A stretch of 60,153 nt of DNA, filler included. It is 8 parts of 8 records of this genome, joined end to end, with 100 filler letters (N's around TTAATTAATTAA, not from the genome) between each part and the next. Parts side by side here need not be neighbours in the genome. Positions count along the whole stretch, not along the records: positions 27,338 to 41,411 come from SRR31147125_52690; 7 more parts are not named here. One strand, 5' to 3'. The notes below the pieces were generated by a model. The model was not told where the DNA came from, searched no databases, and saw nothing but the letters and a program-made list of their open reading frames with translations. Below are positions 27,820 to 47,141 of the stretch, in pieces. The first letter of the stretch is position 1. Each line of letters starts with the position of its first letter. The position numbers and the translations under genes are program-made.

Positions 27820-27822
27820 GCG

Positions 27823-28238: not shown

Positions 28239-28709
28239 ATGCGGCACGCCTTCGCACTTTCACTTCTGCTCTGCTTCTTCTGGCTGGTTAATTCCGGGCA
28301 CTACACACCGTTGCTCCTTTTCTTCATGGTGGTATCAGTCTGCTTTGTCGTCGCGCTGAGTCACTATATGGACGTTGTGGACGGTGAGGCGCAGCCGCTG
28401 CACATCACCTTCCGGCTGCCGGTATACATTATCTGGCTCGCCGGAGAAGTATTCAAGGCCAATATCATGGTTTCGAAGTGCGTCTGGCAGGGCGCCGACT
28501 CGATCAGTCCCCGCACTATCCGGGTGGATGCGAGCCAGAAGACCGATGTCGGTCTGGTGATTTACGCCAACTCGATAACGCTGACACCGGGCACGGTCTC
28601 CATCGACCTGGAGGGCAGCCAGATTGTCGTGCACGCGCTCAACGCTGCATCGGAGGAGGACCTGCTCACCGGGGAAATGGACCGCCGGGTTTGTAAGGTG
28701 GAAGGATGA
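28239..28709 (+). CDS. mrpE: Mrp/Mnh Na+/H+ antiporter subunit E
   Basis: YANSITLTPGTVS and VHAL motifs. Confidence 0.93.
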   Translation: MRHAFALSLLLCFFWLVNSGHYTPLLLFFMVVSVCFVVALSHYMDVVDGEAQPLHITFRLPVYIIWLAGEVFKANIMVSKCVWQGADSISPRTIRVDASQKTDVGLVIYANSITLTPGTVSIDLEGSQIVVHALNAASEEDLLTGEMDRRVCKVEG

Positions 28710-28981
28710 TGTACGCGATAACCGCATTGACGCTACTGGTGGTGATGGCCCTTGCACTGGCCAGGGCGTTTTCCGGGCCGACGCTTTACGACCGTATCCT
28801 CGCAGTTAACAATTTCGGCACCAAGACGGTGCTGCTCATCGCGGTGATGGATTTCCTGTCCGGGCGTCCGGACTTCCTCGATATCGCGATCGTCTACGCG
28901 TTGATCAATTTCATCTCCATTATCGGTGTCCTGAGGTTCTTCGAGTATGCCCAGCAGAAAACGGTGGAGCAGGCCGAGTGA
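28706..28981 (+). CDS. mrpF: Mrp/Mnh antiporter subunit F
   Basis: GPTLYDRILA, DIAIVYALINF; three TM segments. Confidence 0.92.
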   Translation: MMYAITALTLLVVMALALARAFSGPTLYDRILAVNNFGTKTVLLIAVMDFLSGRPDFLDIAIVYALINFISIIGVLRFFEYAQQKTVEQAE

Positions 28982-29330
28982 TGGATATTGCACTTGATAT
29001 AATCAGCTGGGTGTGTCTGATCACCGGCAGTTTCTTCTGTCTGACCGGCGGCATCGGGCTGATCCGCTTCCCCGAATTTTTTCGCGGATCCATGCCGCCT
29101 CTCTGACCGACACACTCGGGGCCAGCCTGATCCTGATCGGCCTGATGTTCCAGGCCGGGATCAGCCTGACCCTGGCCAAGCTGATCATGATCCTGATTCT
29201 TTCCCTGATCGCCGGGACTACGGCCAGTCACGCGATGGCGAAAGCCGCGCTGAAGAGCGGTATGTGCCCGCTCGATCAGGTCGACCGGAGTGCTGAAGGG
29301 TCGGTCAAATCTTACAAGGACAAGGGGTAG
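28981..29330 (+). CDS. mrpG: Mrp/Mnh antiporter subunit G (frameshift in T-run ~29077-29082)
   Basis: ATG 28981 ...GGIGLIRFPEFF joins SRIHAASLTDTLG...ASHAMAKAA on adding one T. Confidence 0.88.
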
Positions 29331-29331
29331 C

Positions 29332-30327
29332 ATGGAAACACTGATAGATTTCGTGCTGCTGAGTTTTCTCGTGCTGACCGCGCTCGCGGTCGCGAAGATG
29401 AACGACCTGTTCGCGGTCGTCATGCTCTCGGGGATTTACAGCCTCCTTTCGGCGAGCCTGTTTCTCGATCTCGACGCGGTCGATGTTGCGTTTACCGAGG
29501 CATCGGTGGGGGCCGGTATTTCGACGCTGCTGTTTCTCGCGTCACTGAAACTGGTCGGCCGGTACGAGAAGCGCACCCGCTATCGACCGATGCTCGCGCT
29601 GGGGGTCGTGCTCGCCACCGGCACCCTGCTCATATACGGAACGCTCGACATGCCGCATTTCGGGGCAGCCGATGCACCGGTGCACCAACACGTTGCGCCT
29701 CGCTACCTTGAAGATTCAAAAACCGAAATTGGCGTTCCCAACGTGGTGACGTCCGTGCTGGCGAGTTACCGAGGCTACGACACTCTCGGAGAGACCCTCG
29801 TTATCTTTACCGCCGGAATTGGCGTTACGTCGCTGCTCCGGGTTTCCAGGCGGACCAAACGGGAAGAACGGGGTAAAGTACCGGCGGACATGCAGCAGCA
29901 GATTATCCTTCGGGTCGTGGCGAAATGGATGCTGCCGCTGATCATGGTTTTTGCACTGTATGTCCAGTTTCACGGGGACTACGGACCGGGTGGCGGATTT
30001 CAAGCCGGAGTAATATTTGCCGCCGGAGTAATCCTCTACACGATGCTCTACGGCCTGAGTACCACCCGGAAGGTCTTCCGTCGCGAGATGCTGGAGTATC
30101 TCGCCGCAGGCGGCGTCCTGCTTTATGCCGGGGTGGGGCTGGTCTGTATGTTCCTGGGCGGCAATTTCCTCGACTACAATGTGCTCAGGCATGACCCGGT
30201 GCACGGGCAGCATCTCGGAATCCTGTTGGTCGAACTTGGTGTCGGCATCACGGTTGCGACGGTGATGATGACCATCTTCTTCAAGTTCACCTGGCGTACG
30301 GTCAAACACAAGTATTTCATCAAATGA
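29332..30327 (+). CDS. mrpB: Mrp subunit B fused to the MrpA C-terminal (DUF4040-like) domain
   Basis: AVDVAFTEASVGAG, NVVTSVLASYRGYDTLGE, HGDYGPGGGFQAG. Confidence 0.88.
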   Translation: METLIDFVLLSFLVLTALAVAKMNDLFAVVMLSGIYSLLSASLFLDLDAVDVAFTEASVGAGISTLLFLASLKLVGRYEKRTRYRPMLALGVVLATGTLLIYGTLDMPHFGAADAPVHQHVAPRYLEDSKTEIGVPNVVTSVLASYRGYDTLGETLVIFTAGIGVTSLLRVSRRTKREERGKVPADMQQQIILRVVAKWMLPLIMVFALYVQFHGDYGPGGGFQAGVIFAAGVILYTMLYGLSTTRKVFRREMLEYLAAGGVLLYAGVGLVCMFLGGNFLDYNVLRHDPVHGQHLGILLVELGVGITVATVMMTIFFKFTWRTVKHKYFIK

Positions 30328-30749
30328 ATCTGATAGGGCTCTATAACTACTGGATCGTAGTCGTGCTGATGATGATCGGTTTTTATGTCGTCATCGCGCA
30401 TGAAAATCTCATCAAGAAACTGGTGGGGCTCTCAATTTTCCAGACGTCAGTATTTTTCTTCTACATCAGTATGGGAAAGATAAGCGACGCGACCCCGCCG
30501 ATCCTGGATCCTCGGTTCGACCTCTACTCCAACCCGCTGCCCCATGTCCTGATACTCACCGCGATCGTCGTCGGCATCGCCACGACTGCTCTCGGCCTCG
30601 CACTGGTTGTCCGAATCCAGGAATCGTACGGGTCGATCGAGGAGTACGAGATCCAGACCCAGGATACGCAGGACCAGATGGAGAGTCAGCTGGAAGCCTA
30701 CGGGTTCAGGAAAAAACATGTCCTCTCCATCCAGAATCTAGACGAGTGA
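30324..30749 (+). CDS. mrpC: Mrp/Mnh antiporter subunit C
   Basis: NLIKKLVGL, NPLPHVLILTAIVVG. Confidence 0.93.
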   Translation: MNLIGLYNYWIVVVLMMIGFYVVIAHENLIKKLVGLSIFQTSVFFFYISMGKISDATPPILDPRFDLYSNPLPHVLILTAIVVGIATTALGLALVVRIQESYGSIEEYEIQTQDTQDQMESQLEAYGFRKKHVLSIQNLDE

Positions 30750-32230
30750 TTGAACATCTTCCCATACTGCAGGTGCTCATCCCCCTGCTGGGCGCACCTC
30801 TCTGTCTGATACTCAGACAGCCCCGGTTGGTCGCGATATTTGCGCTGCTGGTCAGCACCCTTACCTTTATGGTCAGCTGCGGGCTGCTGCAGCAGGTCAT
30901 GCTGCACGATGTACTGGTGTATTCCCTTGGAGGATGGCCGGCCCCATGGGGGATCGAATACCGGATCGATTACCTGAACAGCTACCTGCTGCTGATCGTT
31001 TCGGCAATGGGCGCCATCGTACTGGTCGCATCCCAGACCAGCATCGCCAGGGAACTGCCGCGCAACCGGCACATGCTGTATTACACCGCCTACCTGCTCT
31101 GCCTGACCGGCCTGCTCGGGATCGTGTGCACCGCAGACGCGTTCAACATCTTCGTATTTCTTGAGATTTCCTCGCTGTCGTCCTATACCCTGATCGCGCT
31201 CGGGAACGACCGCAGGGCGTTGACGGCGGCCTACCAGTACCTGATCATGGGAACCATCGGGGCGACCTTTATCATCATCGGGGTTGGCCTCATGTACATG
31301 ATGACGGGTACGCTGAACATGTACGATCTTGCCGAACGGCTGCCCGCCGTCAACAATTCACGCACGGTACTCAGTGCGATCGGATTTTTCATCGTCGGCG
31401 TCTGCCTGAAACTGGCTCTTTTTCCGCTCCACCTGTGGCTTCCGAATGCGTATGCGTTTGCCCCGTCGGCGGCAACGGCCTTCATGGCTGCGACTTCGAC
31501 AAAGGTGGCCGTGTATGTCCTCATCCGCTTCGTGTTCTCGGTGGTCGGGGCGGAGTTCATGGTCACCGTACTCCCGCTGCAGCAGATCTTTATCGTACTT
31601 GGTGTCACCGGCGTGTTCGCAACGTCGATCTCGGCGATATACCAGCTCAATATCAAGCGTCTGTTCGCCTACTCCAGTGTGGCCCAGATCGGCTACATGA
31701 TTATCGGGCTGGGCATTGGAACAAAACTCGGGCTCACCGCGACGCTGATTCACCTGTTCAACCACGCGTTGATGAAAGCCGCGCTTTTCCTGGCTATCGG
31801 TGGTGTCGTGTACCGGATCGGCAGTTCCCAGCTCAGTCATTTCGCCGGTCTCGGCAAACAGATGCCGTTTACGATGGCCGCAATCGTGGCAGGCGGCATG
31901 AGTCTCATCGGTGTGCCGTTGACCGTCGGGTTCATCTCAAAGTGGTATCTGGTCCTCGCGCTGCTGGAGAAGGGCTGGTGGCCGCTGACGGTGCTGGTGC
32001 TGATTAGCTCGCTTTTGGCCGTGCTCTACGTATGGCGGATCGTCGAGTGGGTCTATTTCACGCCACCGCGGATCATCATCGATGACGTGAAGGATGCACC
32101 GTTGAGCCAACTGGTCCCCATTTGGATCCTGGTGATCGCCAATATCTATTTTGGGATTGATACGTCCTTGACCGTCGGCATCAGCCAGAAGGCGGCGGAG
32201 ATCCTGTTCGGCGTCGGAGGACTGTTCTGA
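30746..32230 (+). CDS. mrpD: Mrp/Mnh antiporter subunit D
   Basis: GGWPAPWGIE, DAFNIFVFLEI, KLALFPLHLWLPNAY, KRLFAYSSVAQIG. Confidence 0.92.
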   Translation: MIEHLPILQVLIPLLGAPLCLILRQPRLVAIFALLVSTLTFMVSCGLLQQVMLHDVLVYSLGGWPAPWGIEYRIDYLNSYLLLIVSAMGAIVLVASQTSIARELPRNRHMLYYTAYLLCLTGLLGIVCTADAFNIFVFLEISSLSSYTLIALGNDRRALTAAYQYLIMGTIGATFIIIGVGLMYMMTGTLNMYDLAERLPAVNNSRTVLSAIGFFIVGVCLKLALFPLHLWLPNAYAFAPSAATAFMAATSTKVAVYVLIRFVFSVVGAEFMVTVLPLQQIFIVLGVTGVFATSISAIYQLNIKRLFAYSSVAQIGYMIIGLGIGTKLGLTATLIHLFNHALMKAALFLAIGGVVYRIGSSQLSHFAGLGKQMPFTMAAIVAGGMSLIGVPLTVGFISKWYLVLALLEKGWWPLTVLVLISSLLAVLYVWRIVEWVYFTPPRIIIDDVKDAPLSQLVPIWILVIANIYFGIDTSLTVGISQKAAEILFGVGGLF

Positions 32231-33717
32231 TGAATCTGTCTCCCGAGTTCCTGATGATGGCTACGCTGCTGGTTCCGCTCATGGCGGTTTTCGGTATTGC
32301 AGCCGCAGACCGCAGCCCGAATCTGAGAGAGGGGGTGACCCTGACTGCCTGTGTGGTCCTCATTGCTCTGGTCTGTAAACTGTACGCGCTGACGTCGGCG
32401 GGGGTGGAAGCTTCATGGGACGTGGTGGAGATGATACCCGGTCTCTCCATGTATTTCCGTATCGAGCCGCTCGGCATGCTTTTTTCGCTGATTGCCGCTT
32501 TTCTCTGGCTGATTACAACAATTTATTCGATCGGCTACATGCGGGGACACCACGAGAAAAATCAGACCCGATTCTATATCTGTTTCGCAATCGCGATCTC
32601 ATCGGTTATGGGCATTTCTTATGCCGGGAATCTGCTCACACTCTTTATCTTCTATGAGGTCCTGACACTCTCCACGTATCCGCTTGTCACCCATGCGGGA
32701 ACAGAAAAGGCAAAATCCGGTGGGCGGATCTATCTCGGTATATTGCTGAGTACGTCAATTCTCTTCTTGCTGCTCGGTATCATCGGTACCTGGTATATAA
32801 CCGGAACTCTTGATTTTAAGGCCGGGGGCGTGTTCCACAGTTCGGACACGTTTGCCGCAGCGGTGTTGTTGCCGCTGTTCATCTTCGGAATCGGTAAAGC
32901 GGCAATCATGCCGTTTCACCGGTGGCTGCCCGCCGCCATGGTAGCCCCGACTCCGGTCAGTGCACTGCTGCATGCGGTAGCCGTGGTGAAAGCGGGTGTC
33001 TTTTCGGTGCTGAAGGTGTGTACCTATATCTTCGGGTTCGACCTGCTGTGCCAGCTGCCGAGTACCGATTTTCTCATCTACCTGGCCGGGGCGTCGGTGA
33101 TCATTGCGTCGCTCGTGGCGATGCGGCAGGACAACCTCAAGGCCAGGCTGGCCTATTCCACGGTGAGCCAGCTCAGCTACATCACCGTGGGCGCGCTGCT
33201 CGCGAACGAAGCCGGCGCACTGGGCGGGGCGATGCATATCGGGATGCACGCGTTCGGCAAGATCACGCTGTTTTTCTGTGCCGGCGCGATCATGGTGGCA
33301 TCGCACAAAACGGAAATATCGGATATGCACGGGCTGGGACGAAAAATGCCGATCACGATGACGGCCTTTTTCATCGGTGCCCTGTCGATCATCGGGCTGC
33401 CCCCGTGCGGCGGCACGTGGTCTAAGTGGTATCTGATGATCGGGACCATCGATGCGCACCAGTGGGTCCTGATGGCGGTTCTGATGGCCAGTTCGCTGCT
33501 CAATATTGCTTACCTGCTGCCTATACCGCTCAAGGCGTTCTTTTATGAGCCTGCCGATAACGGTTCTGCCGGCACTGCAATGCAGGAAGCGCCGCTGCCG
33601 TGCCTGATCGCATTGTGCCTGACCGCAGCGGGATGTATTGTTCTGTTCATCTATCCCCAGCCGCTGTTCGAGCTGGCAACTTCATTCGTGGAGGCGACCG
33701 GTTACCATGGCAGATGA
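32230..33717 (+). CDS. MrpD/MrpA-like proton-conducting membrane subunit (second paralog)
   Basis: KAAIMPFHRWLPAAMVAPTPVSALLHA, DNLKARLAYSTVSQL. Confidence 0.88.
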   Translation: MNLSPEFLMMATLLVPLMAVFGIAAADRSPNLREGVTLTACVVLIALVCKLYALTSAGVEASWDVVEMIPGLSMYFRIEPLGMLFSLIAAFLWLITTIYSIGYMRGHHEKNQTRFYICFAIAISSVMGISYAGNLLTLFIFYEVLTLSTYPLVTHAGTEKAKSGGRIYLGILLSTSILFLLLGIIGTWYITGTLDFKAGGVFHSSDTFAAAVLLPLFIFGIGKAAIMPFHRWLPAAMVAPTPVSALLHAVAVVKAGVFSVLKVCTYIFGFDLLCQLPSTDFLIYLAGASVIIASLVAMRQDNLKARLAYSTVSQLSYITVGALLANEAGALGGAMHIGMHAFGKITLFFCAGAIMVASHKTEISDMHGLGRKMPITMTAFFIGALSIIGLPPCGGTWSKWYLMIGTIDAHQWVLMAVLMASSLLNIAYLLPIPLKAFFYEPADNGSAGTAMQEAPLPCLIALCLTAAGCIVLFIYPQPLFELATSFVEATGYHGR

Positions 33718-33994
33718 GAAACGCTACCTGTTCGACAATCCACGCAATGTCAAGGCGGTACTGTACCTGCTCTATGCAAGCTGCGGCCTGCTGCTCCTCA
33801 TCGATTTCATGATTCATCGGCACATTACCCATCACTGGGAAAAGCTGCTCGGCTTCTACTGCATATACGGGTTCATCGGCTGCAGCGGTATCGTGATCGG
33901 GTCGAAGTGGCTGCGGGCATTGGTGGAGCGTGAGGAAGACTATTATACGAAAGATGAATTGACCCAGCCGGAGGAGCGCCATGTGGAGCAGTAA
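33707..33994 (+). CDS. Small 2-TM protein inside the mrp operon
   Basis: ATG 33707 MADEKRYLFDNPRNVK; two TM segments, GFYCIYGF, REEDYY; overlaps both neighbours. Confidence 0.78.
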   Translation: MADEKRYLFDNPRNVKAVLYLLYASCGLLLLIDFMIHRHITHHWEKLLGFYCIYGFIGCSGIVIGSKWLRALVEREEDYYTKDELTQPEERHVEQ

Positions 33995-35684
33995 CATTCC
34001 GGCCTTTGTCCCGTTTTTCCTGGCTGCCGGGCTGGCTGCGGTGACCCGGGGCCGGACCCGTTCGACCCTGATGCTCATGATCGTCGCGCTGAGCGGCCTG
34101 CATCTCTGGTTTCTTGAAGGCGATGTCCTGGTGCGAATGGCGTTTCTGGACTATGAGCTTGCGCCGTACCGGGTGGACGGCTTAAGCGTTGTATTCGGCT
34201 ACGTGTTCCACATCGCGGCCTTTATTTCGATTCTTTTTTCGCTGCACGTAAAAGATACGACCCAGCACGTGGCCGGTTTGCTCTATGCGGGCTCTGCACT
34301 CGGAGCGTTGTTTGCCGGCGACCTGCTGAGCTTGTTCGTTTTCTGGGAATTGCTCGCCGTAACCTCGGCGTTTCTCGTCTGGGCGCAGCGCAGCGAGCGG
34401 GCGTACCAGTCGGGCATGCGCTACCTCATCATTCAGGTGCTGTCGGGTGTCATCCTGCTCGCCGGTCTGCTGATGCACCTGGAGGATACCGGTTCTCTCG
34501 AGTTCACCTATATCGGCATCGACTCCGTGGCGGGCTGGCTGATCCTGGTGGCGTTCGGCATCAAGGCGGCCTTTCCGCTGCTCCATACCTGGCTCACCGA
34601 TGCGTACCCGGAAGCCACTCCGACCGGGACCGTGTTCCTCAGCGCATTTACGACGAAGACCGCGATCTATATGCTGGCCCGGGGCTATCCAGGAACCGAG
34701 CTGCTCATCTATATCGGGGCGGTAATGGCCACCTTCCCGATCTTCTACGCGGTGATTCAGAACGACCTGAGGAGGGTGCTCTCCTACAGTCTGATCAATC
34801 AGCTCGGCTTCATGGTGTGCGGCATCGGCATCGGCACCGCGCTGGCGATAAACGGGGCAGTGGCCCACGCGTTCGTGCACATCATCTACAAGAGCCTGCT
34901 CTTCATGTCGATGGGGGCGGTGCTCTACATGACCGGAAAGATCAAGGCAACCGATATCGGCGGCCTGTACAAGACGATGCCGATAACCGCGATCCTCTGT
35001 ATTATCGGTGCGGCTTCTATCTCCGCGTTTCCGTTGTTCAGCGGCTTCGTCGCGAAATCGATGATCATGGCAGCCGCCCTCAAAGAGGGGCACCAGGCCA
35101 TCTGGCTGGTATTGCTGCTCGCATCGGCAGGTGTGCTGAAGCATGCAGGCATCCAGATTCCCTATTTCGCCTTTTTCGCCCACGATTCGGGTATCAGGAC
35201 ATCGGAACCGCCGAAGAACATGATGCTTGCGATGATGATCGCTGCCGCGCTCTGTCTGGCAATCGGTATATACCCGGACATGCTGTACCGGCTGCTGCCG
35301 TTTGCAACCGATTTCACCGCCTACGACCTGAGTCACGTGGTCACCCAGATGCAGTTGCTGTTCTTCGCAATGCTGGCATTTGTGTGGCTCAATCTGCAGG
35401 GTGTATACCCGCCCGAAAAAGTGGCGATCAACCTCGACGGGGAGTGGTTCTACCGTCGTTTCCTGCGTCGCGTCGTCGGGCTCTTCGGCCGCTGGATCAG
35501 AGGGACGGACGGCTCCCTGCGCTCCAAGGTCGAACGGAAGATCAGCCAGCTGGGCGGCTATCTGGCGCAGCGCCACTATCCCACCGGGAAGGGGGCGGTG
35601 ATCCGGCCAACGGGCAACATGGTCATGTATATCGCAATCCTGCTTGCCGCATACCTGTGGCTGCTGCTCAGTTTCCCCCACTGA
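33981..35684 (+). CDS. MrpA/MrpD-like proton-conducting membrane subunit (third paralog)
   Basis: GDLLSLFVFWE, LHTWLTDAYPEATPTG, NDLRRVLSYS, AFPLFSGFVAKSM. Confidence 0.88.
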   Translation: MWSSNIPAFVPFFLAAGLAAVTRGRTRSTLMLMIVALSGLHLWFLEGDVLVRMAFLDYELAPYRVDGLSVVFGYVFHIAAFISILFSLHVKDTTQHVAGLLYAGSALGALFAGDLLSLFVFWELLAVTSAFLVWAQRSERAYQSGMRYLIIQVLSGVILLAGLLMHLEDTGSLEFTYIGIDSVAGWLILVAFGIKAAFPLLHTWLTDAYPEATPTGTVFLSAFTTKTAIYMLARGYPGTELLIYIGAVMATFPIFYAVIQNDLRRVLSYSLINQLGFMVCGIGIGTALAINGAVAHAFVHIIYKSLLFMSMGAVLYMTGKIKATDIGGLYKTMPITAILCIIGAASISAFPLFSGFVAKSMIMAAALKEGHQAIWLVLLLASAGVLKHAGIQIPYFAFFAHDSGIRTSEPPKNMMLAMMIAAALCLAIGIYPDMLYRLLPFATDFTAYDLSHVVTQMQLLFFAMLAFVWLNLQGVYPPEKVAINLDGEWFYRRFLRRVVGLFGRWIRGTDGSLRSKVERKISQLGGYLAQRHYPTGKGAVIRPTGNMVMYIAILLAAYLWLLLSFPH

Positions 35685-35750
35685 CGGCCGGCCGGGTGTT
35701 GCAGCTGTTGTTGCCCTGAGTTGCGAAGACTCTGAACCTGTATGGGGACT

Positions 35751-36731
35751 CTACTTGCCGAGCGGCAGGATCAGCTGATGGTCGGATCTGTCGGCGTCGA
35801 CAACCCGAATGTCACCAATTTCCGGGTATATCGACTTGATGAATTCCAGGTAGATTTTTTCCCGGTGAGCCTCCGGTTTCTCGACATACGATTCGTAACG
35901 TGACCGGAACCGGGATGCCTCACCCTCCGCCTCGAGGATCTTCTCGTTCTTGTACGAGCGGGCCTCCTGCACAAGCCGGTTTGCCTCCGTGCGCGCCTCC
36001 GGAACGATCCGGTTGAGATATCCCTGGGCCTGGTTGAGCGCCTGTTTCTTCTCAACTCCCGCATTGATGACCTTGTCGAAATCCTGCTGCACCTTGGTGG
36101 GCGGGGTTATCTCCTTGATTTCCAGAAAGGTCAGATGAATGCCGGTGCTGAACCGCTCGAGCTGCTCTGACAATGCGTTCTGCAGGTCGAACTCGAGCTG
36201 TTTCTTGCCGATAGTCAGTACTTCGTCGATCCTGAGTCGGGCCAGATGGTGGACGATCAGATCCGCCGTGCAGCGTTCCATGAAATGCTCGGGTCGCTTC
36301 ATCTCGTAGAGGTATTTCACCGGATCACCGATAGTGTATTTCAGGACCAGGGTGATCGCGACGATGTTGTTATCTCCGGTGATACAGTATGGCTCGAGGT
36401 CCGTATTGTTGTAGAAGGAGTAGGACCTGCCCCCCTGTTTATGCGTGTAGCGGGAACTGAAATCGTTGATCGCAACGGTCTTCACCTGTTTGACCGGGAC
36501 GATTTCGATTTTGTCGACTGGCCAGGGGAGCTTGTAGTGCAGACCGGGTGGAACCCGCGGCTCGACGATTTTCCCAAAACGCGAGAGCACCCCGACCGCG
36601 TCTCCGGGAATTTTGTACATGCCGCTTGCTCCGTAGACGATCAGCGCGACGATCAGAATCCACTTCATGTACACCCATATCAATTGGTGAAGCGCGCGTG
36701 AAAGCGCTCCTGATACCGATCCCCGTTTCAT
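35751..36731 (-). CDS. hflK: HflK-like SPFH protein
   Basis: TM, VLSRFGK, PGLHYKLPWPVD, ITGDNNIV, IVPEARTEA, EAEGEASRF. Confidence 0.85.
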   Translation of the reverse strand: MKRGSVSGALSRALHQLIWVYMKWILIVALIVYGASGMYKIPGDAVGVLSRFGKIVEPRVPPGLHYKLPWPVDKIEIVPVKQVKTVAINDFSSRYTHKQGGRSYSFYNNTDLEPYCITGDNNIVAITLVLKYTIGDPVKYLYEMKRPEHFMERCTADLIVHHLARLRIDEVLTIGKKQLEFDLQNALSEQLERFSTGIHLTFLEIKEITPPTKVQQDFDKVINAGVEKKQALNQAQGYLNRIVPEARTEANRLVQEARSYKNEKILEAEGEASRFRSRYESYVEKPEAHREKIYLEFIKSIYPEIGDIRVVDADRSDHQLILPLGK

Positions 36732-37618
36732 TGCAGCGCATCCTTCCTGTCAATCTGGAGGTATTTGAATAGATCCGAATCTGTGGAAATGACCAAGGTC
36801 GTGTCCCTCCCGAGAATTGAGCTGTAGGTTTCGAGAGATTGCAGGAAATTGAAGAATTCGCCGCCTTCCTGGTATGCTTCGGTGTAGATGGCCATGGATG
36901 TGCGGTCACCTTCGCCTTTAAGGATGAGCGCCTGCTTCTTTGCCTCCGCCCGGATTTGACGAGCCTGCTTGTCCGCCTCAACCGTCGTTTTCTGCGCCAC
37001 TTCGATTCCTTCGGCCCGGATCTTGTCCGCCTCTTTCTTGCGCTCGGATTTCATGCGTTCGTACACTGCATTGATGACAACGCTCGGGTAGGCGAGTCGC
37101 TGAACACCGGTTTCGAGGATTTCCACTCCGTATTTCGACGTCGAGTTTGCGCTTGCGGCGGCGGTGGCCCGATCCTCTATTTCACCGAGCAGCACGTGAT
37201 CGGCTTCCGTGTTGATGATGTTTTCGATCGAGTAATCCGCAAGGACGATTGACAGTTTGGAGTTGATGATATCGCCAAGTTTCTGAACCGCATTCTCCGT
37301 TTGCCCCATCGATTGGAAGAAGAGCAGCGGGTCATCGATTTTCCACAACACGTAGCAACTGATGATGATCGGCTTCTTGTCACCGAGCAGGAGCTGGGTC
37401 GGCTGGGTCTCGAACAGGTCGGCGCGTTTGTCGAACCGGTTCACCCGTTCGATGAAACCCGGGAATTTGATTTTGAGACCGGCGGAGTCGAGCGTCCGCA
37501 CCGGTTTTCCAAACTGGGTAATAATAACCAGTTCATTCTCCTTCACCGTATAAAATGAGAAATAGAGCACAACGGCGAGCACGCTGATCAGCGCTGCAAT
37601 GCCAACACGAATCTTCAT
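36728..37618 (-). CDS. hflC: HflC-like SPFH protein
   Basis: ITQFGKPV, DKKPII, WKIDDPLLF, VYERMKSER, IRAEG, FFNFLQSLETY, DSDLFKY. Confidence 0.9.
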   Translation of the reverse strand: MKIRVGIAALISVLAVVLYFSFYTVKENELVIITQFGKPVRTLDSAGLKIKFPGFIERVNRFDKRADLFETQPTQLLLGDKKPIIISCYVLWKIDDPLLFFQSMGQTENAVQKLGDIINSKLSIVLADYSIENIINTEADHVLLGEIEDRATAAASANSTSKYGVEILETGVQRLAYPSVVINAVYERMKSERKKEADKIRAEGIEVAQKTTVEADKQARQIRAEAKKQALILKGEGDRTSMAIYTEAYQEGGEFFNFLQSLETYSSILGRDTTLVISTDSDLFKYLQIDRKDALQ

Positions 37619-39416
37619 TAGTTCTTCCTTCCACTCATGTAATTTTCGAGATAGATGAGCTTCCCGTCGATACCGCTTTTCGGGTCGACCAGAAATATCT
37701 TCTTATCCGTCAGCGCCGTTTCCGCCGCCTTCAGCAATAAAATATCCTTCATCACCGCGCCTCCTTCCATATACCCCTGGTAGCGGAGGAGGTAGTTCGT
37801 CGCTTCCCCCTCTGCGATTTTCTCTTTTTCGATGACATAGCTTCGGGCTTCGGCAACGGTTTTCATCTTCTTGATCCGTTCACGGGAAAGCAGTGCATCG
37901 ACCCTCCGTTCTGCATCGTTGAGGTTTGCTTTTTTGAGCTGGTTTGCGGCGACAACCTCCTCATACGAGCCGGCCAGTTCGATAGGCGGATGGAGGTCGC
38001 GGAGGCAGAATTCGACAATCTCGATCCCGATTTTGAGTTCGTCGCTGCGGGCCTGAAGTTGCTCGGCGAATTCCCGGGTCCATGGCTCGCGCTCCGTGAG
38101 GATTAGGTCGTAAAAAGGGGTGGTGGAGAACAGCTGGTTGAGCATCTGCAGAGACAGTGATGTGAGCATTTTCTCAGGAACACCGTCACTGAAGCTCAGG
38201 TAGTAGTCGTGCACGCTATTGATGCGGTAGTGAACGACTATGTACGGCAGGAACAGGTTGTTGTCGCCCGAGATAAACGCCTGGTTGTCCCCGTGGTCCT
38301 TGGTCCAGATCATGGCTGTTTCCGCAACCATGCTGTTGCCGAGCACGAGGTTTTGAACGCTGGTTGCATCGAACGTCGTGACCCGGTCGACCGGGTAGGG
38401 CAGTTTCAGATGGATTCCCGGTCCGATATCGGCCGTTTCATTGACAAGCCGTCCCATTCTCATCAGCAGCGCTTTTTCATTCGGGGCGACGGTATAGAAG
38501 AAAGTCGACAGGTAGGCGAGAAGTGCGGCGGCCGCGGCTGTTCCGGCGGTGAGTCTGAAAACCCACCGGAAAATGAGCGGGATCTTTTTCAGGAAGGCCT
38601 TCGCCCGGGAACTGATCTGAATCTGTGTATCGATAAATCGTGCCAGAGAAATATAGGTTTCCACCTGGAATGCACGCCAGATAATGGACGTAAAACGATA
38701 CTCAAACGCGATCCGGCTGTTACCTGTGACGATAGCGCGAATCGAGTTGACCAGCAACTCGGAGGCAAAGGTGAATATATACAACGCGATGAAAATACCG
38801 ACCCAGCGATCCACATCGATTGTAAAATAGTAGAGGATCAGCGAGATACCGGTGAGCAGCGAGATCGCCATATCTGCACGATTGTGGTGGCTGTCCGCCA
38901 CCAGTGCAGCGGAGTCTTCTGACTGGCCGACAAGTGCTTCGAAGCGGCTGATAAAGAACGATCCGAAGGAGAGACCGATGAATATCAGCCCGGTTATCAG
39001 GGAAGGGACACGACCGCGCGTTCACTCACGATTCCGCGCCAGAATATCGTAGCAGCGGCAATCATCAGAACACCCCCTATGAGCGTGGAGATTTTCAGCT
39101 CGGTATTGACTCTTCGAAACCATCTCCAGGCGCGGACAAAAGCGTTCGTGGGGTGATGCTCGGCTGCAGCGGAGGTGTCGGCTGTCGAAAGACCGGAATG
39201 ACTTTCGGTTGCTGCGGCGCTGTTTGTTTTTGTTTTATTGGACTGGTGGATGATCGAGACGAGAACGAGCATCGTGGTTGCGACATCGGACGTACTGTGC
39301 CATGCCTCGGACAACACCGCGATACTTCCCGATAACCAGTACAGGATAAATTTGATTGCGGTCAGGACTATCGTAAATGAAAACGCCAGCCAGGCAGCTT
39401 TGGTGCTCTGTGACAC
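37618..39416 (-). CDS. CDF cation-efflux transmembrane domain fused to an HflK-like SPFH domain (~600 aa; frameshift at 39000-39002)
   Basis: ORF 38997-39416 has CDF TM1-3 (SGSIAVLSEAWHSTSD). Adding one C continues LITGLIFIGLSF...SAALVADSHHNRAD (TM5), then GPGIHLKLPYPVD, ISGDNN, DLHPP, AEGEA. Confidence 0.8.
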
Positions 39417-39519
39417 GGGGAAACCTCTTCTGATTTACTCATAGGGAAAATGACAGAAAAGGATATAGAATACAGCTGAAAAAGGAAAGCCACCTCGGTC
39501 TGATTTAACGCAAACCTAA

Positions 39520-40368
39520 TTAACGGTTCATGTTGAATTGATTGCTCATACGGTTCCTGTTCTTGAGCAGGTCCACGATTGCCGGGTCTGGATGGTGGAG
39601 GATCTGCGGCGGCTCCGGGAAGGGGAGCTGCAGTTCGGCACCGAACGGGGTTTCGAGATTACGGTTGTAGGCTTCGACCATCAGCCGCTCGAGATTGACC
39701 GTATCCTCGATATTGTAGGCGAGCAGCGTCTCCAGCGCCTGTTCGTTGCCGGTTCGCTCGTACTCCCTCCACAACAGCACCGCGAAGCTGCCGTCGATCC
39801 CGTCAAGGCTGCCGCGGTTGATGCCGAGCTGCCTCTCGCATTTTTTCAACCCTCCCTTGAACCCCATGCGCGATAAGACGTAGCGCAGATCGATGTGGGC
39901 CTGGTCGAGTTCGATCCTGAAAAAATGTTCGATAACGGGGACATCGAACGACAGCCCGTTGAAGGAGATGAACACGCCGATGTCTTCGACATCGTCGATG
40001 AATTCATCGAGGTTGATCGTGTTGACGTAGGTTCGCACCCGGCTACCGTCGTAGAGCGCAATGCTGGTAATCTCACAATCGTGGCCGAGGCCGGTGGTCT
40101 CGATATCGATGTAGCCGACCTGCTTTCGGTAGTGCGGAAACAGCCGCCAGCGATCGCCGTGTTTCAGCCGTTTGATGAAGAACAGGGGGTCGTCGGCGAG
40201 GGCTTCGAGCGACGCCTCGAGAACTGCCGCGACTTCATGTCCGCTGACCCGTGGCACGATGTCCGGAGATTGCAGCAGATCGTCCCACGTGCGGATGCCC
40301 TGGGCCCAGAGCTTCTGTTCGCCGCCGTAGCCTATTCCCTGGATGTGGCAGAATGTGTGTTCAAGCAT
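39520..40368 (-). CDS. YprB-like RNase H-fold (DEDD-type) nuclease
   Basis: IDIETTG, SFNGLSFDVP, HIDLR, GGLKKCE, YNIEDT; N-terminal IQGIG HhH-like motif. Confidence 0.85.
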   Translation of the reverse strand: MLEHTFCHIQGIGYGGEQKLWAQGIRTWDDLLQSPDIVPRVSGHEVAAVLEASLEALADDPLFFIKRLKHGDRWRLFPHYRKQVGYIDIETTGLGHDCEITSIALYDGSRVRTYVNTINLDEFIDDVEDIGVFISFNGLSFDVPVIEHFFRIELDQAHIDLRYVLSRMGFKGGLKKCERQLGINRGSLDGIDGSFAVLLWREYERTGNEQALETLLAYNIEDTVNLERLMVEAYNRNLETPFGAELQLPFPEPPQILHHPDPAIVDLLKNRNRMSNQFNMNR

Positions 40369-40399
40369 GAAATGAGTGTGATGAATTGTCGGATGAGGG

Positions 40400-40822
40400 T
40401 TACCAGTCGGAGGAAGAGACTTTACGGCGCTGTGACTTGCGGCGGCTGCGCTGCTGTTTGCTCTCGAGCCGTTTCTCGCGGGCTGCCCGGGACGGCCGGG
40501 TCGGTACCCGTTTTTTGGCTTTTTTCAACGCTGATGTGATGATCAGGCGGAGTCGCTGGAGCGCGTCTTCCCGATTCTGCTCAAGACTCCGGAAGCGCTG
40601 CGCCTTGATCACGATGACGCCGTCGTCGGTGATCCGGGAATCCCGCATGTTCAACAGCCTGGCTTTGCACTGTTCGGGCAACGATGAGTTCTGTATGTCG
40701 AAGCGCAGGTGGATGGCTGCGGCGACCTTGTTCACATGCTGCCCGCCGGGTCCGGAGGCGTGAATCTGGCGTAACTCAATTTCCTGGTCCGGGATGTGTA
40801 TTGTGTCGGTAATCGTAATCAT
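40400..40822 (-). CDS. arfB: Alternative ribosome rescue factor ArfB
   Basis: SGPGGQHVNK (GGQ), RSLEQNREDAL, basic tail with PTRPS. Confidence 0.95.
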   Translation of the reverse strand: MITITDTIHIPDQEIELRQIHASGPGGQHVNKVAAAIHLRFDIQNSSLPEQCKARLLNMRDSRITDDGVIVIKAQRFRSLEQNREDALQRLRLIITSALKKAKKRVPTRPSRAAREKRLESKQQRSRRKSQRRKVSSSDW

Positions 40823-40861
40823 CTGTTGGGCTCGGGCGCCGGGTCCTGTCGGGGAGAGAGG

Positions 40862-41411
40862 CTATTCCTCGCTATACTCCATGTCGTTTCCACCTATGCG
40901 CAGCACCTTCAGCGTATTCGTCGTTCCGACCGTGTTCAGCGGTAGACCCGCCGTGATGACAACCCGGTCACCGATTTCGATCAACCCTTCCTCCAGCGCC
41001 TGGCTGGTACTGAAGCTGATCTGCTGGTGCAAGCTGTTCGAGTGCGTGCAGATTCTCGGAATAACGCCCCGAATGAGTTGCAGCTTGCGCAGCGTCGCGG
41101 GGAGTGAACTGAATGCGAGAACCGGCGTCCTGGGCCGGTAGCGGGCAACCCGCAGGGCGGTGGAACCGGACGTCGTGGCGGTGATGATCGCCGCCGCGGA
41201 GAGGTCGGCGGCGGTGGCGCAGGACGCATAGGAAATCGCATCGGTGATGACCGGTCTCCGGAACCGGAGGCCGTCTGCCAGGATGGCATCGTAATCGAGC
41301 GCCTCCTCGCTGGTGCGGGCGTTGCGGGCGAGAAACTCGACGGCCTCGACCGGGTAGCTGCCGACGGCGGTCTCCCCGGAGAGCATCACCGCGTCGGTGC
41401 CGTCGAAAATC
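40862..41411 (-). CDS. pyk: Pyruvate kinase (5'-partial)
   Basis: DGTDAVMLSGETAVGSYPVEAV, TTSGSTA, ARYRP, GTTN. Confidence 0.95.
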
Positions 41412-41511
41412 NNNNNNNNNNNNNNNNNNNNNNNNNNNNNNNNNNNNNNNNNNNNTTAATTAATTAANNNNNNNNNNNNNNNNNNNNNNNNNNNNNNNNN
41501 NNNNNNNNNNN
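41412..41511. other. Artificial contig spacer 5
   Basis: N44-TTAATTAATTAA-N44. Confidence 0.98.
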
Positions 41512-42543
41512 GCCGCAGCAGAAGTTGTTGGATTTGTTGGGAGTCATGTCGATGAAGTTCTCTTCACCAACAACGGATTTGACCACAAAGCGCAGATCAT
41601 CGGCAATGGCATCGCCATAAGATTTTCTGACAATCTGACAGGGATCCTGCACGGTGAATTTAATTTTCAAGTCTTTGTTCCAGTCGGAGTTGACCTTCAG
41701 TTTCCCTTCCCGGATCCACTTCGCATAGTATTCGTAGATGTTTTTAACTTGAAAATCGTGTTCGATGTCAAATCTTTTCAGTCCTGCCAGGACTGAGTAG
41801 GTCACGTGCCCTCATTCGGTGTTGAGGAACGTCTTGCACCCCACTTTCGATGCTGCCTCGGCACTCTGTCTGGTGAGATGTTCCCATGCCTCATCATCGG
41901 AGAGAAACATACAGTAATTTTCTCCAGCCCACCCTTTGCTGGTGTAGGTCCAGTCGGCGCCGACCAGATGAAGGATTTTCCATAGCGGTATCAGCTCGTC
42001 AGGTTCCGTTACCGGTTCCCTGGAATTTTGGTTCAATACAAATTCAGCACCAATTTTATCGATGGGGGCTTCCATTTCGGCAAACTCAGGCTGTGCTTCC
42101 TGGTACTCTTCCAACACGTCGCTGACAACAAACTCAAAATCATCCACAGGGGTCCCCATGGCGCTTCCGGATTCATTGGAAAGCGCTGCGTCGCAGGATC
42201 CCAAGATTCCTTTGGGGCGAGTCTCTCTAGGCCATGATTGTCTTGCATAATAGACCAGTTGAGGAATGTTGATTTCCATGGGGCAGACATGAACGCATCG
42301 CATACACATGGAACACATCCAAGCCCAGTTACTGGTGAGGAGCTCCTCATCCATGCCGAGAGCTGCCATGCGTAGAAATTTTCTGGGATCCATGCCTTCG
42401 AGGCCGGTGGCCGGACAGCCCGAGGAACAGGCTCCGCAGGTCAAGCAGGCATTGAGGTTTCCGCCGTTGGGCAGAAGTGCCATCACCTTGTCTTTAAACA
42501 CGCTTTTGTGTTTTTTTTTGATTTTAATTACTGGATCACCCAT
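41512..42543 (-). CDS. HdrD/GlpC-like Fe-S oxidoreductase, predicted selenoprotein (3'-partial)
   Basis: ATG 42543 with AGGAG RBS; CLTCGACSSGCP and CSMCMRCVHVCP; in-frame TGA 41812-41814 in NTE-U-GH; frame continues to QDPCQIVRK and NFCCG. Confidence 0.88.
41778..41796 (-). promoter_or_regulatory. Bacterial SECIS-like hairpin
   Basis: TCAGTCCT-GGC-AGGACTGA, a perfect 8-bp stem with G-containing loop, 15 nt after the UGA. Confidence 0.8.
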
Positions 42544-42688
42544 TCCGGATATCTCCTTGAGTGTTGAAATTGAAATGAAATTTGATGTTGGTTTTTGACG
42601 AAAGGCCAACAGAGAAAAATTGGGCCTTTTCACTCCTTGCCTTTTCCATCCGTTTAATGATGGTTGATGATGAGTTATATCTTAAAAG

Positions 42689-42742
42689 TTATTGGCAATG
42701 TATCGCTTAAAATTGCTTTTAAGTCAATACTTATTGGCAATA
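42689..42742. promoter_or_regulatory. Pair of palindromic operator-like sites
   Basis: TTATTGGCAAT at 42689-42699 and 42731-42741 in the AT-rich divergent intergenic region. Confidence 0.5.
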
Positions 42743-42908
42743 CTTCAGAAGTTTTTTAAAATGTACAGAGTTGGGAGATGGGAATAGGTAAATTGTCATT
42801 TGGGGGTTAAAATTGTCTATTGAGATGGAATTTTTTTTATTTCAATAGGTTATTGGAGTGTTAAATAGAGTTGACTTTTACCCTCACTATAATAGAATCC
42901 AAAAAATT

Positions 42909-45900
42909 ATGAATCATTATAAGCAAATCAGACAGATTGAAAAATTATTGGATCGGGTGATGTGCTCTGATCGTCCCGGTGTGATCAGAGAGCTCAAGCA
43001 GGTCAAAAAAATCTCCGGCTGGAGCAAAAAAAAGAGATAAGCTCGGTATCCAAAGGGCAAAAAAGGTCTTCTACAGCAACTCAAACTCTCCAGAGAATTG
43101 AAAGGGTGTTAAAACGAGTTGACGCTTCTGTTCAAAGATCGGCAGAGCGTCGGGCATCTATGCCTAAGATCTCTTTGATACCGGAATTGCCCATTACGGA
43201 TAAAAAAGATGAGATCGTCGAGGCCATCAAAGCCAATAGAGTCGTGATCATCTCCGGGGAGACCGGTTCCGGAAAGACGACGCAGATCCCCAAGTTTTGC
43301 ATGGCCGCCGGAAAAGGGGTCAATGGGACCATTGGATGTACCCAGCCCAGAAGAATTGCCGCCATGAACGTCTCTGCCAGAATCGCCGAAGAGCTGGCAG
43401 AGCCCCTGGGGCAATCCGTTGGATACAAAATTCGGTTTGACGATCGGGCGGCACAAAATTCCATTGTCAAGGTGATGACAGACGGTATTTTGCTTGCTGA
43501 AACCCAAAAAGACGGCTGGCTCAATGAGTACGATACCCTCATCGTTGACGAGGCCCATGAGCGGAGCCTCAACATCGATTTCATCCTGGGAATTCTCAGG
43601 GATCTGATTCAAAAACGCCGGGATCTTACTCTGGTGATCACTTCCGCTACTATCGATACGGAGAAGTTTTCCAAAGCCTTTGACAATGCTCCGGTCATCG
43701 AAGTGTCCGGCCGTATGTATCCGGTGGAGGTGCGGTATATGCCGGTCCATGGGCATGATGATCCGGAACAGGATGATCAGGGCTATGTAGAGGCGGCTTG
43801 TGACGCCGTGGAGATGATCCAGCGGGAGTCCCGCAGCGGCGATATTCTCATTTTCATGCCCACGGAGCAGGATATTACCGAGGCCATCGAAATTCTTCGG
43901 GGGAGACGGTATGTGGGCGTCTCGGTACTTCCCCTCTATGCCCGTCTTTCTGCAGGGGAGCAGAGCAAGATTTTCCACCGGGGGCCGGGACGGAAAATCA
44001 TCGTCTCCACCAATGTGGCGGAAACCTCATTGACCATTCCCGGGATTAAATATGTGGTGGATACCGGTTTTGCCAGAATTCCCCATTACTCCCCCCGAAC
44101 CCGCACGACGGCACTCCCCGTCACCCCCATTTCCAGAAGTAGTGCCGATCAGAGAAAGGGGCGGTGTGGGCGTGTGGCCAACGGCATCTGTATTCGTCTC
44201 TACGATGAGGATGATTTTGCTTCCCGTCCGCTATTTACCTCTCCGGAAATTTTGCGCAGTAACCTGGCTGAGGTTATATTGCGGATGATCTCCCTTAGAT
44301 TGGGAGATGTGGCTGCCTTTCCATTCATTGATGCGCCGGCTCCCAAATCAATTAAAGATGGATTTGATACGTTGCTGGAACTTGGGGCCATTGTCGTTCA
44401 AAAGAATAAGCGAAAGGAGTTTGGAAAAGCGAATCAAAGGACTCGGCAAAAGAATATGCAAGGGGACCTGTCAAAAGAGACCCAGGGAGAATTGCCAATA
44501 GATTCCCAAAGGGATCGGAAAAAAGAGAAAAAAGAAGGCAAGCGCTACGTCCTTACGGAAAAAGGCCGGGTCATGGCCGGTATTCCCGTAGATCCCAAGC
44601 TCTCCAGAATCCTCATCGAGGCGGATGAGCGAGGTTGCCTTGACGAGGCCGTCATCATTGCATCGGCCCTCTCCATTTCCGATCCGCGGCAGCGCCCCCA
44701 GGATAAAACCCAGCAGGCGGATCAAAAACATGCGCTGTTCAAAGATCCGGCATCGGATTTCATTTCTCTTCTCAATGTCTGGAACGCCTATCATGAGGCC
44801 CAGCAACGCTTGAAAAGCCGAAGCAAAGTGAGAAAATTCTGCAACGACCATTTTTTATCCTTTAAACGGCTTCGGGAGTGGAGCGATATTCATCGACAGA
44901 TTCTCTCCGTTCTGAGGGAGCATGGGATCAAAGGAAAGAAAAAAATCTCCATCGCTTCCGGTACCAAGGGGCTCAAAGCCAAAGCGTTTGATATTGGGGG
45001 CCATTTTTATACCGAGCTTCATAAGTCGCTGTTGAGCGGATATCTTGGCAATATCGGACACAAAAAAGAGAAGAATCTCTATCATGCCGCCAAAGGGCAA
45101 AAGGCGATGATCTTTCCCGGATCCGGTCTTTTCAATAATGCCGGGAACTGGATCGTGGCTGCCGAATATGTGGAGACCTCTCAGCTTTTTGCCAGAACGG
45201 TGGCCACCATCGATCCGGGATGGTTGGAAGAGCTGGGAAGGGATCTTTGCACATTCACTTGGTCATCCCCCCATTGGGAGAAAAAGAGGGGGAGGTGGTG
45301 GCGTCGGAGCAGATCTCTTTGTTCGGGCTTATTATCGTGCCGGAACGTTCCGTGGCTTACGGAAAGATCAATCCTTCCGAAGCCGGGGAGATATTTATCC
45401 GAAGTGCTTTGGTCGAGGGGGAGGTGATGCGCCCTTTTCCATTTATGCAGCATAATCACGCATTGATGGAGGAACTTCGGCAACTGGAAGAGAAGACCCG
45501 GAAGCGGGATATTCTGGTGATGGAAGAGGATATCTTTCTCTTTTATCAGAACCGGTTGGATCGGGATTTCTTCAATATCCGCACCTTTGCCAAATTTTTG
45601 AAAGACAAGCGGGACGACGCTTTTCTACGGATGACCCTGGAAGATCTTCAGCAAAAGCCCGTGGATGAGGTGGATCTCAGCGGTTTTCCCGATGCCCTTT
45701 GTATGGGGGCGCTGGAGTTCGGGCTGGAGTACGGGTTTGAACCGGGAGCGGAAAAAGACGGTATCACGTTGAAAGTACCGGTACCGGCGGCTGCATCAGT
45801 GGATCCCCAGGCCCTGGAGTGGCTGGTTCCGGGGCTATTCAAGGAAAAGGTGACGGCGCTCATCAAGAATCTTCCCAAATCCCATCGGGTGAAGCTGCTG

Positions 45901-47141
45901 CCTGCATCGGAAAAGGCCAAGATCATTGCCGAAGAGCTGTCCGATGCCCATCATCGAGGACGATTGCAGGGACGGCCCCTGTTTTCGGAGCTCAGTCAAT
46001 TTGTCAAACAGCGGTTCAATGTCGACATTCCTGCATCGGCCTGGTCGGACGAAGCGCTGGAAGATCATCTGAAAATGCGCATTTCCATCCGGGATGATCA
46101 GGATCAGGAGATGACGGCATCTAGAAGCAAATCGTTGCTGAAGGAATATGCCGATGGGGAGAAGAGCGTCCAGACCGGGGAGGATGCATTTGAAGCGGCA
46201 AAACAGCAACATGAAAGGGACGATGTCCACTCCTGGGATTTTGGCACTCTTTCTCGATCCATCACCATTGAGGGGGCATTTTCAACCTCTTCCACCGAAG
46301 ACTCAGACCCGGACCGTTCACCTCCGCTCACCTATGAACTTTTTCCTGCATTGACCGTGGAGGAAGATCGGCTGGCGTTGCGTCTGTTCAAAAAAGAGGA
46401 TACGGCCATCCACTCCCATAAAGACGGCGTTCGAAGGCTCTTTATCCACACTTTTGAAAATGACTTCAATGCCCTTAAAAAAGATATCAGAAGTGCCGCC
46501 CGCTTGAAACGGTATGGGGCCTTTTTTGGCGGGGGGAGCTATTGAATCAAGCGCTGTTTACATCCGTCACCACCCATTTGTTTGCCCGGGACATTCGAGA
46601 TCGGGATGCCTTTGACGCCCATGCCGCGTCTTCTCTGCCTCTTCTTTATAAAACCGGCCAGACACTGGTTTCTGCAGTCACTCGCCTTTGTGAAGCCCAT
46701 GAGGAGACCCGGGCGGTCATCAAACAATTGAGCATCAAAGGAAAGAAAAGACCCCGGCTTTCGGCATTGGCCGAGCAGCTTCAAAGGGATCTGGATTCAC
46801 TGCTGCCCAAGGATTTTTTGGAGATCTACTCATTTGATCGGGTGGAGGCGCTGCCCCGGTATGTGTCTGCCATCAAAATCAGAGCCCAGCGGGCGGAGGT
46901 GGATCTGGTGCGGGATGGGAAAAAGGCCGCCGATGTGGAAGTCTACACCAAAAAACTGGAGCGGATGCTGGATGAGCTGGACAGCGAGACTTCCAGGGAA
47001 AAAGCAGATGCTGTGGAAGGGTTTTTCTGGATGCTGGAAGAGTATAAAGTGTCGCTGTTTGCTCAGGAATTGAAAACATCGGTTAAAATATCCCCTAAAC
47101 GCCTCAATACTCTTTGCAGTGAGATTGCACTGATGATATGA
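42909..47141 (+). CDS. hrpA: ATP-dependent RNA helicase HrpA (three homopolymer frameshifts)
   Basis: GETGSGKTTQ, TQPRRIAA, DEAHERS, SAT, STNVAETSLT, QRKGRCGR; C-terminal EWLVPG and WMLEEYKVSLFAQEL; breaks near 43030, 45290 and 46535. Confidence 0.93.

Follow-up and report, generated by a model that had tools for sequence, protein, structure and literature searches.

The window analysed here is a stretch of 60,153 nucleotides in which eight parts of one genome are joined end to end with filler letters between them, positions 27,338 to 41,411 coming from SRR31147125_52690. Positions 35751-39416 of its minus strand are filled by three translationally coupled genes: a gene, here called K', that fuses a CDF-type metal transporter domain to an HflK-like SPFH domain, then an hflC-like gene and an hflK-like gene. 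On balance, we favour the view that this trio encodes a dedicated SPFH assembly of three subunits, with a functional CDF exporter of the Zn type built into one of them. The job that seems likeliest for it, which we put forward tentatively, is not bulk detoxification but the local provision of metal to metalloenzymes, above all phosphatases, that have been exported. SPFH cages and CDF transporters are both known kinds of protein, and it is their widespread fusion that is without a paper in the literature searched, where no description of a CDF-SPFH fusion was found, most subscription journals lying outside the coverage. The features of the locus are as follows; P0002 is a close full-length relative and frame B the reading frame of the larger piece of K'.

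37618-39416, minus strand: K' fusion gene (CDF membrane domain, linker, seventh helix and HflK-like SPFH domain; about 599 aa counting the missing base)
38997-39416 and 37618-39021, minus strand: the two pieces of K' in this record, with the frame break at a C run
39000-39002, minus strand: C run, three C in the record and apparently one base short; four C in an independent contig
38728-39416, minus strand: CDF-type membrane domain (six helices; the loop joining helices 2 and 3 is variable and of low complexity)
39285-39299, minus strand: helix 2 motif HSTSD (H40, D44), read in the sequence
38872-38886, minus strand: helix 5 motif HNRAD (equivalent to H174, D178 of P0002), read in the sequence
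38488-38727, minus strand: predicted cytoplasmic linker (two short helices, K/R-rich end) and seventh membrane helix, after the model helices of P0002
37621-38493, minus strand: HflK-like SPFH domain with long C-terminal helices (Band_7 at frame B residues 177-371)
36728-37618, minus strand: hflC-like gene, above the TIGR01932 cut-off
35751-36731, minus strand: hflK-like gene, above the TIGR01933 cut-off

As the record stands, four open reading frames (ORFs) follow each other head to tail on the minus strand, at 38997-39416 (139 aa), 37618-38901, 36728-37618 (296 aa) and 35751-36731 (326 aa). Frame B, that of the second ORF, is open back to 39021 and runs up to the stop at 37618 (467 aa). The stop of K' overlaps the start of the hflC-like gene (TAATG at 37618), and the stop of the latter overlaps the start of the hflK-like gene (ATGA at 36728-36731). 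A preliminary description, made from the sequence alone, had proposed these overlaps and an operon of the fusion with HflC and a second HflK; the overlaps are present, and gene positions, Pfam and NCBIfam scores agree with the operon. All three proteins match Band_7 (PF01145; 53.8, 95.4 and 76.6 bits; cut-off 23.6). The hflC-like gene passes the TIGR01932 equivalog cut-off (189.8 versus 134.4 bits), as does the hflK-like gene that of TIGR01933 (192.5 versus 159.4 bits). The SPFH part of K' is HflK-like, scoring 91.4 bits with TIGR01933 versus 24.2 bits with the hflC model, and stays below the hflK equivalog cut-off.

The N-terminal half of K' was assigned to the CDF family by matches in both pieces: the 139-aa ORF covers positions 2-55 of 198 of Cation_efflux (PF01545; 35.1 bits), and frame B covers positions 109-197 (29.7 bits; Pfam cut-off 26.6) before it enters Band_7. 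Each half alone remains under the TIGR01297 cut-off of 82.35 (46.8 and 34.4 bits). No CDF C-terminal domain or other Pfam family was found in either piece at E <= 0.01; such a cytoplasmic domain is typical of CDFs, though not universal. Residues H40, D44, H174 and D178 of the two HxxxD motifs are invariant in an alignment of 60 full-length relatives that are 31-62% identical to the reference, and so are W39, S41, D171, E216 and N220. This invariance argues for a working metal site. The quartet aligns with D45, D49, H153 and D157 of YiiP/FieF, in a sequence alignment to the E. coli protein that is weak (E 0.006); the set is D-D/H-D in YiiP and H-D/H-D in K', and the latter we take to be the mark of Zn-type CDFs. 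Thus the CDF domain with both motifs intact, as first described, is borne out by the profiles and by the relatives.

The fold was computed on P0002 (594 aa; 67% identity over 98% of frame B) with the 60-sequence alignment, and the model (mean pLDDT 79.5, pTM 0.53) contains 6+1 membrane helices plus an SPFH domain. The first six helices are predicted at residues 3-29, 32-61, 85-126, 135-163, 166-193 and 199-226, followed by linker helices at 238-245 and 248-262, a seventh long helix at 266-300, an alpha/beta SPFH domain at 303-472 and a 70-residue helix. The replacement of the usual cytoplasmic CDF domain by an extra membrane helix and an SPFH domain, also part of the preliminary description, is therefore seen both with Pfam and in the model. 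The termini of CDF membrane domains are cytoplasmic, and for this reason the seventh helix should put the SPFH domain of K' in the periplasm, as in HflK. The best PDB matches of the model in Foldseek were HflK/HflC chains of FtsH complexes (7vhq_E, E 1.8e-15; 9cz2; 7wi3), next came other SPFH cages, and then YiiP (8f6k_B, E 5.4e-6 over 230 columns; 5vrf) and ZnT7. A complex prediction for two CDF membrane domains (residues 1-235) returned a score of 0.00 with the alignment unused, and speaks neither for nor against dimerisation.

Both halves have known counterparts. With the E. coli HflK/HflC-FtsH complexes (7VHQ, 7WI3, 9CZ2, 9PAW) the trio shares the SPFH fold and the long helices (Foldseek E 1.8e-15 to 4e-11), as well as K-type and C-type subunits encoded side by side; however, E. 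coli has two paralogues and the trio three, and where E. coli HflK has a short cytoplasmic tail, K' carries a six-helix transporter instead. With YiiP/FieF (3H90, 2QFI, 5VRF, 8F6K) and ZnT7 (8J80) it shares the six-helix membrane domain and the site A quartet at the same positions, whereas the cytoplasmic C-terminal domain of those transporters is absent from K', the seventh helix and the SPFH domain coming next.

The interruption of K' is best explained by an error of the record. The 139-aa ORF ends with ..VVSLP followed by TGA (38997-38999), and frame B carries on with LITGLIFIGL, while full-length relatives read straight across the break as ..AAPLVTGLIF (..AAPLVTGLIFTGL) with no residue missing, from which it follows that the C run at 39000-39002 is probably one base short. 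A Logan contig (4215 nt, depth 9.9) spans 37201-39500 without substitutions, and its sole difference is an extra G behind 38999 on the plus strand. Read along the gene this is a fourth C, and with it the frame is restored just as expected from the homologues. The public run of this contig holds 0.98 of the sampled words and may be the source sample, so that it represents an independent assembly rather than an independent sample. The record shows further damage: an HrpA-like helicase gene at 43106-47141 (plus strand) is broken into three overlapping ORFs of 773 aa (DEAD/Helicase_C/HA2/OB), 441 aa (DUF3418 1-386) and 199 aa (DUF3418 402-579), implying two more frame breaks, and next to an N run at about 41464-41510, which reads as X in the ORF 41464-41805, there is an ORF of 175 aa (40862-41389, minus strand) comprising only the C-terminal domain of pyruvate kinase (PK_C), so that the N run looks like a scaffold gap that cuts genes. 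Because the contig restores the frame, the helicase gene is split and the N run is present, a record error is the likeliest cause, and the one-nucleotide correction suggested earlier stands. It is very improbable that K' is a true pseudogene broken by a frameshift in this organism: the stop at 38997-38999 is in the record as deposited, but the contig of the possible source run carries the additional base, apart from the break the two halves are undamaged and can be aligned with homologues over their full length, and splitting a gene into three ORFs, as for the helicase, is what error-prone records do.

The fusion is not confined to this genome. A search with frame B returned 94 proteins, most of 580-640 aa and the best with 67% identity, and 81 of them carry both PF01145 and PF01545; their source names are 'cation transporter' or 'protease modulator HflK family protein'. 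A genome scan with one genome per species found at least 67 fusion loci, a lower bound, as only two peptide patterns were used. They occur in Desulfobacterota, SAR324, Gammaproteobacteria, Acidobacteriota, Planctomycetota, Gemmatimonadota, Spirochaetales, Hydrogenedentota and unclassified bacteria. In 58 of the 59 loci whose sequence continues for 2100 nt or more beyond the fusion gene, the next genes on its strand are hflC-like and hflK-like, in this order and with 0-324 nt separating the tblastn match ends. The K'-C-K trio is kept in these 58; seven other loci had too little downstream DNA. The lone exception is L042, and L062 was removed from the count by a score filter, yet its trio is visible in a search with the window proteins. 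On one Desulfobulbaceae contig, two complete CDF-SPFH trios (L006 and L009) lie about 275 kb apart; of the two, only the L009 copy has a downstream Metallophos gene, and the L006 copy adjoins a DtxR-type repressor gene.

The three genes appear to have been inherited together. A tree of 91 SPFH rows was built from the window and 26 of the 67 loci picked for spread (41 omitted), a second trio found in one of the genomes, and four ordinary HflK/C pairs from the same genomes. It parts the C side from the K/K' side (support 97). K' forms its own group of 25 rows (support 99), plus three divergent rows, the trio K group has 24 rows (support 98) and the trio C group 28 rows (support 86). From one group to the next (K', C and K) the sub-clades are the same, which points to co-inheritance of the trio.

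A transporter on a K'-type SPFH domain is not always a CDF. A profile of 64 such SPFH domains was searched against 1.84 billion representatives, and 3348 proteins matched at E <= 1e-30. Among the best 150, 120 are at least 500 aa long, and a profile of the CDF part picks up 99 of these 120, of which four score weakly (12-38 bits). The 21 without a match and the four weak ones were scanned with Pfam. Four of these 25 are P-type ATPases fused ahead of the K'-type SPFH domain: P0216 (1039 aa), P0228 (995 aa), and the shorter P0218 and P0231, which have a partial E1-E2_ATPase match and are possibly fragments. All four carry the CPC and DKTGT motifs, the former presumably marking the heavy-metal type. 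The remaining 21 show Band_7 only, and 20 of them, the four weak CDF matches included, share one N-terminal membrane domain, perhaps a CDF that has degenerated. The last one corresponds, by length and Pfam hit, to the first gene of the second trio mentioned above, L068 (1254-6190, minus strand, genome G005), which occurs in the genome of locus L010 behind ABC_tran and UPF0014 genes, the latter presumably FetB-like (iron export). The first protein of L068 has 547 aa and aligns to the fusion family (hhalign probability 100), and has lost the helix 5 HxxxD stretch.

The surroundings of the trio vary. In the window, one flank is a convergent Mrp-type operon on the plus strand (MNHE, MnhB, Oxidored_q2 and three Proton_antipo_M by Pfam) and the other an RNase_H_2 gene, in accordance with the first description of the flanks. 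Just upstream of the Mrp-type operon lie two minus-strand ORFs of 909 aa (22850-25579) and 435 aa (25899-27206) without a Pfam family at E <= 1e-6. The Mrp, RNase H-like and ArfB-like flanks recur in none of the 67 loci, so the idea that metal-transport neighbours are conserved found no support, and the recurrent neighbours are instead exported metallophosphatases. Besides the trio, clustering of ORFs over the 67 loci found no gene kept in more than 11, the commonest being a cluster of ABC-type ATPases. Three Planctomycetales loci (L040, L046 and L057) have a Ser/Thr protein kinase gene (738-812 aa) and then a 163-aa ORF, 540-915 nt downstream on the same strand.

Among 118 immediate neighbours scanned with Pfam, 15 were Metallophos proteins, some with 5'-nucleotidase or MetallophosN/C domains, and four were Alk_phosphatase proteins. 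Judged by eye, all 19 N-termini resemble signal or lipoprotein signals. By BLAST, 21 of the 67 loci have at least one phosphatase gene in the fetched flanks, and 11 such genes are co-directional and lie 88-334 nt after hflK. The phosphatase genes as a whole belong to different families and stand at different positions, in at least seven arrangements, and sister lineages differ (a double nucleotidase upstream in L007, an alkaline phosphatase downstream in L017). L018 likewise has a co-encoded alkaline phosphatase, and L001 and L003 have a Metallophos protein. Given the low background of Metallophos, 7-16 matches per genome of 3-7.7 Mb, fewer than one such match would be expected by chance among the 118 neighbours, by our own estimate and with loci that are not independent. 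This pattern suggests metal supply to exported enzymes.

A promoter scan of 35600-39620 gave a single promoter-like site, on the wrong strand; the same region has seven terminator-like sites, not clearly over shuffles (mean 4.1, sd 2.1), and an Rfam search of 30000-45000 gave no match. In 65 upstream regions only AT-rich words were enriched, and single Pho half-site-like words occur in 11 of them, including CTGTCAT at -40 in the window. A PhoB/PhoR identity was considered for the two-component genes near L015, L016 and L024 and rejected, as their best family is cztR/cztS (228-243 bits, below cut-off); only the regulator of L062 is closest to PhoB, also below cut-off.

Taken together, homology, gene coupling and co-inheritance suggest that the three genes encode one HflK/HflC-type membrane assembly, a three-subunit SPFH cage set apart from the ordinary HflK/C sets of the cell. 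In it, K' would take HflK-type positions, with a CDF metal/proton antiporter as its membrane anchor. The six CDF helices would begin and end in the cytoplasm, a short cytoplasmic linker would replace the CDF cytoplasmic domain, and the seventh helix would carry the SPFH domain into the periplasm, where it also lies in HflK of E. coli. The H-D/H-D site points to cations of the Zn type (Zn, and perhaps Co, Cd or Fe), which would leave the cytoplasm for the periplasmic side within the scaffold or next to it.

One close parallel by description is the Pseudomonas aeruginosa cluster PA2439-PA2437 (PaFlo5-7), in which three SPFH genes (HflK family, HflC and HflC family) are also clustered with a metal transporter. 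That transporter, HmtA (PA2435), is however encoded separately and is a P-type ATPase for which import has been reported, whereas the trio has a fused CDF. The PA2439-PA2437/hmtA cluster is up 5.6- to 14.4-fold in a znuA mutant (PMC4542158) and Zur shifts the PA2439 promoter (PMC8531726); the part available of the paper that names PaFlo5-7 reports only mild phenotypes, does not mention hmtA and gives no link to metal (PMC13086221). For the proposed mode of action, in which metal leaves the cytoplasm and activates exported enzymes, there are analogies in the Bacillus subtilis TerC proteins MeeF and MeeY, described as exporters loading metal onto exported enzymes (PMC10550928), and in vertebrate ZnT5-6 and ZnT7, which supply alkaline phosphatase with metal (PMC3799634). 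The likeness is one of analogy, as these cases have no SPFH scaffold and bacterial TerC belongs to another transporter family. Complexes of stomatin with aquaporin 1 (9ZD2) and of QmcA with YbbJ (8Z5G), judging by their entry titles, likewise join an SPFH oligomer to a channel or membrane partner; there the partners are separate proteins, whereas in K' the client is covalently within a subunit.

Several points weigh against a dedicated assembly with a working exporter that feeds exported enzymes. Assembly, transport, direction and metal are all things that we infer, and the cytoplasmic domain that normally holds CDF dimers is absent. The hflC-like and hflK-like genes pass NCBI equivalog cut-offs for FtsH modulators, so some link to FtsH may exist. 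The window and 46 of the 67 loci have no phosphatase nearby, the signal peptides of the neighbouring phosphatases were judged by eye only, and neighbour counts overstate independent events, as the loci are not phylogenetically independent. Other metals are indicated by FeoB in six loci and a DtxR-type repressor in five; NicO occurs in one locus, NUBPL/Fe-S type genes in four, and the heavy-metal-type two-component genes, below cut-off, in three. Finally, the 65 upstream regions revealed no shared operator and no two-site Pho box.

These points leave room for other explanations, of which an ordinary metal-resistance pump is a doubtful one: the CDF would detoxify Zn, Co or Cd, and the SPFH trio would do no more than stand in for the lost cytoplasmic domain, as an oligomerising or stabilising scaffold or a lipid microdomain. 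Consistent with this are the H-D/H-D site, which we take to be typical of Zn-type CDFs, the cztR/cztS-like genes near three loci and the NCBI label 'cation transporter' of the relatives. Yet no recurrent resistance-type regulator or other efflux gene stands beside the trio, the recurrent neighbours are exported metalloenzymes and iron-uptake genes, and a three-gene scaffold maintained across phyla would be a heavy price for an aid to dimerisation. Less probable still, and in our view rather unlikely, is metal-gated control of FtsH, raised in the preliminary description, in which the trio would form an HflK/C cage around FtsH and the CDF would sense or deliver metal to tune proteolysis. The equivalog scores of the second and third genes and the fold match to HflK/C chains from FtsH complexes favour it, as does the fact that FtsH is a zinc protease; moreover, FtsH becomes essential in B. 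subtilis lacking the TerC metalation proteins (PMC10550928). The genomic evidence points the other way. Neither an FtsH-like nor an HflX-like family was found among 24 window ORFs scanned with Pfam between 22.8 and 48.8 kb, in agreement with the earlier remark that neither gene is adjacent, and no ftsH occurs among the 118 immediate neighbours of trio loci. The genomes behind five loci have 10-14 Band_7 matches each, including further HflK/C-like pairs, and in two of them an ordinary pair has an ftsH copy some 3 kb away (G001, contig 1 3612523-3617638; G004, contig 1 6973894-6978086), these pairs being probably the FtsH-linked sets of those genomes; but the nearest ftsH is more than 150 kb from the trio in G004, and none is close to it in G001. 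In the tree, the ordinary pairs fall outside the trio's C and K' groups. Since the trees of the trio genes match and ordinary HflK/C pairs, some by ftsH, lie elsewhere, the trio appears to be an extra, dedicated set, and we read it as a dedicated SPFH assembly and not as an FtsH modulator.

It is also improbable, more so than FtsH control, that the CDF domain no longer transports and serves as a membrane anchor or metal sensor of the scaffold. The loss of the cytoplasmic domain would fit this, as would the CDF-derived domain of L068 with its helix 5 motif deleted and the 20 representatives with no or weak N-terminal CDF signal, which together indicate that the scaffold function can survive without the site. 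In the 60 relatives, however, the four site residues and the five further residues listed above have stayed invariant at 31-62% identity, which argues for a working metal site. A more specific form of the favoured reading, which is itself doubtful, holds that the trio forms a closed periplasmic chamber above a patch of membrane into which tethered exporters (the CDF here, CPC-type P-type ATPases in relatives) pump metal, creating a sheltered metalation compartment for newly exported metalloenzymes. Alkaline phosphatases and other metallophosphoesterases would then be loaded with Zn or another cation in surroundings that offer little free metal. Many lineages that carry the trio are known from sulfidic sediments, a metal-poor habitat. 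If such a chamber exists, it would be a bacterial counterpart of the zinc loading of the eukaryotic secretory pathway and would give the SPFH cage a concrete job.

The clients of most bacterial SPFH scaffolds are hard to identify, and in K' a client is fused onto one of the subunits. The fused exporter has been kept together with two partner subunits across many phyla, and the same type of SPFH domain is also joined to heavy-metal P-type ATPases. The trio is a defined system of three genes amenable to expression, the cultured Desulfobacter curvatus DSM 3379 (locus L003) being one possible source, and it opens two questions to study: what an SPFH cage does to a transporter that it encloses, and in what way a CDF functions when its cytoplasmic domain is missing. 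Its link to exported metallophosphatases, in turn, offers a testable route by which periplasmic enzymes may obtain their metal.

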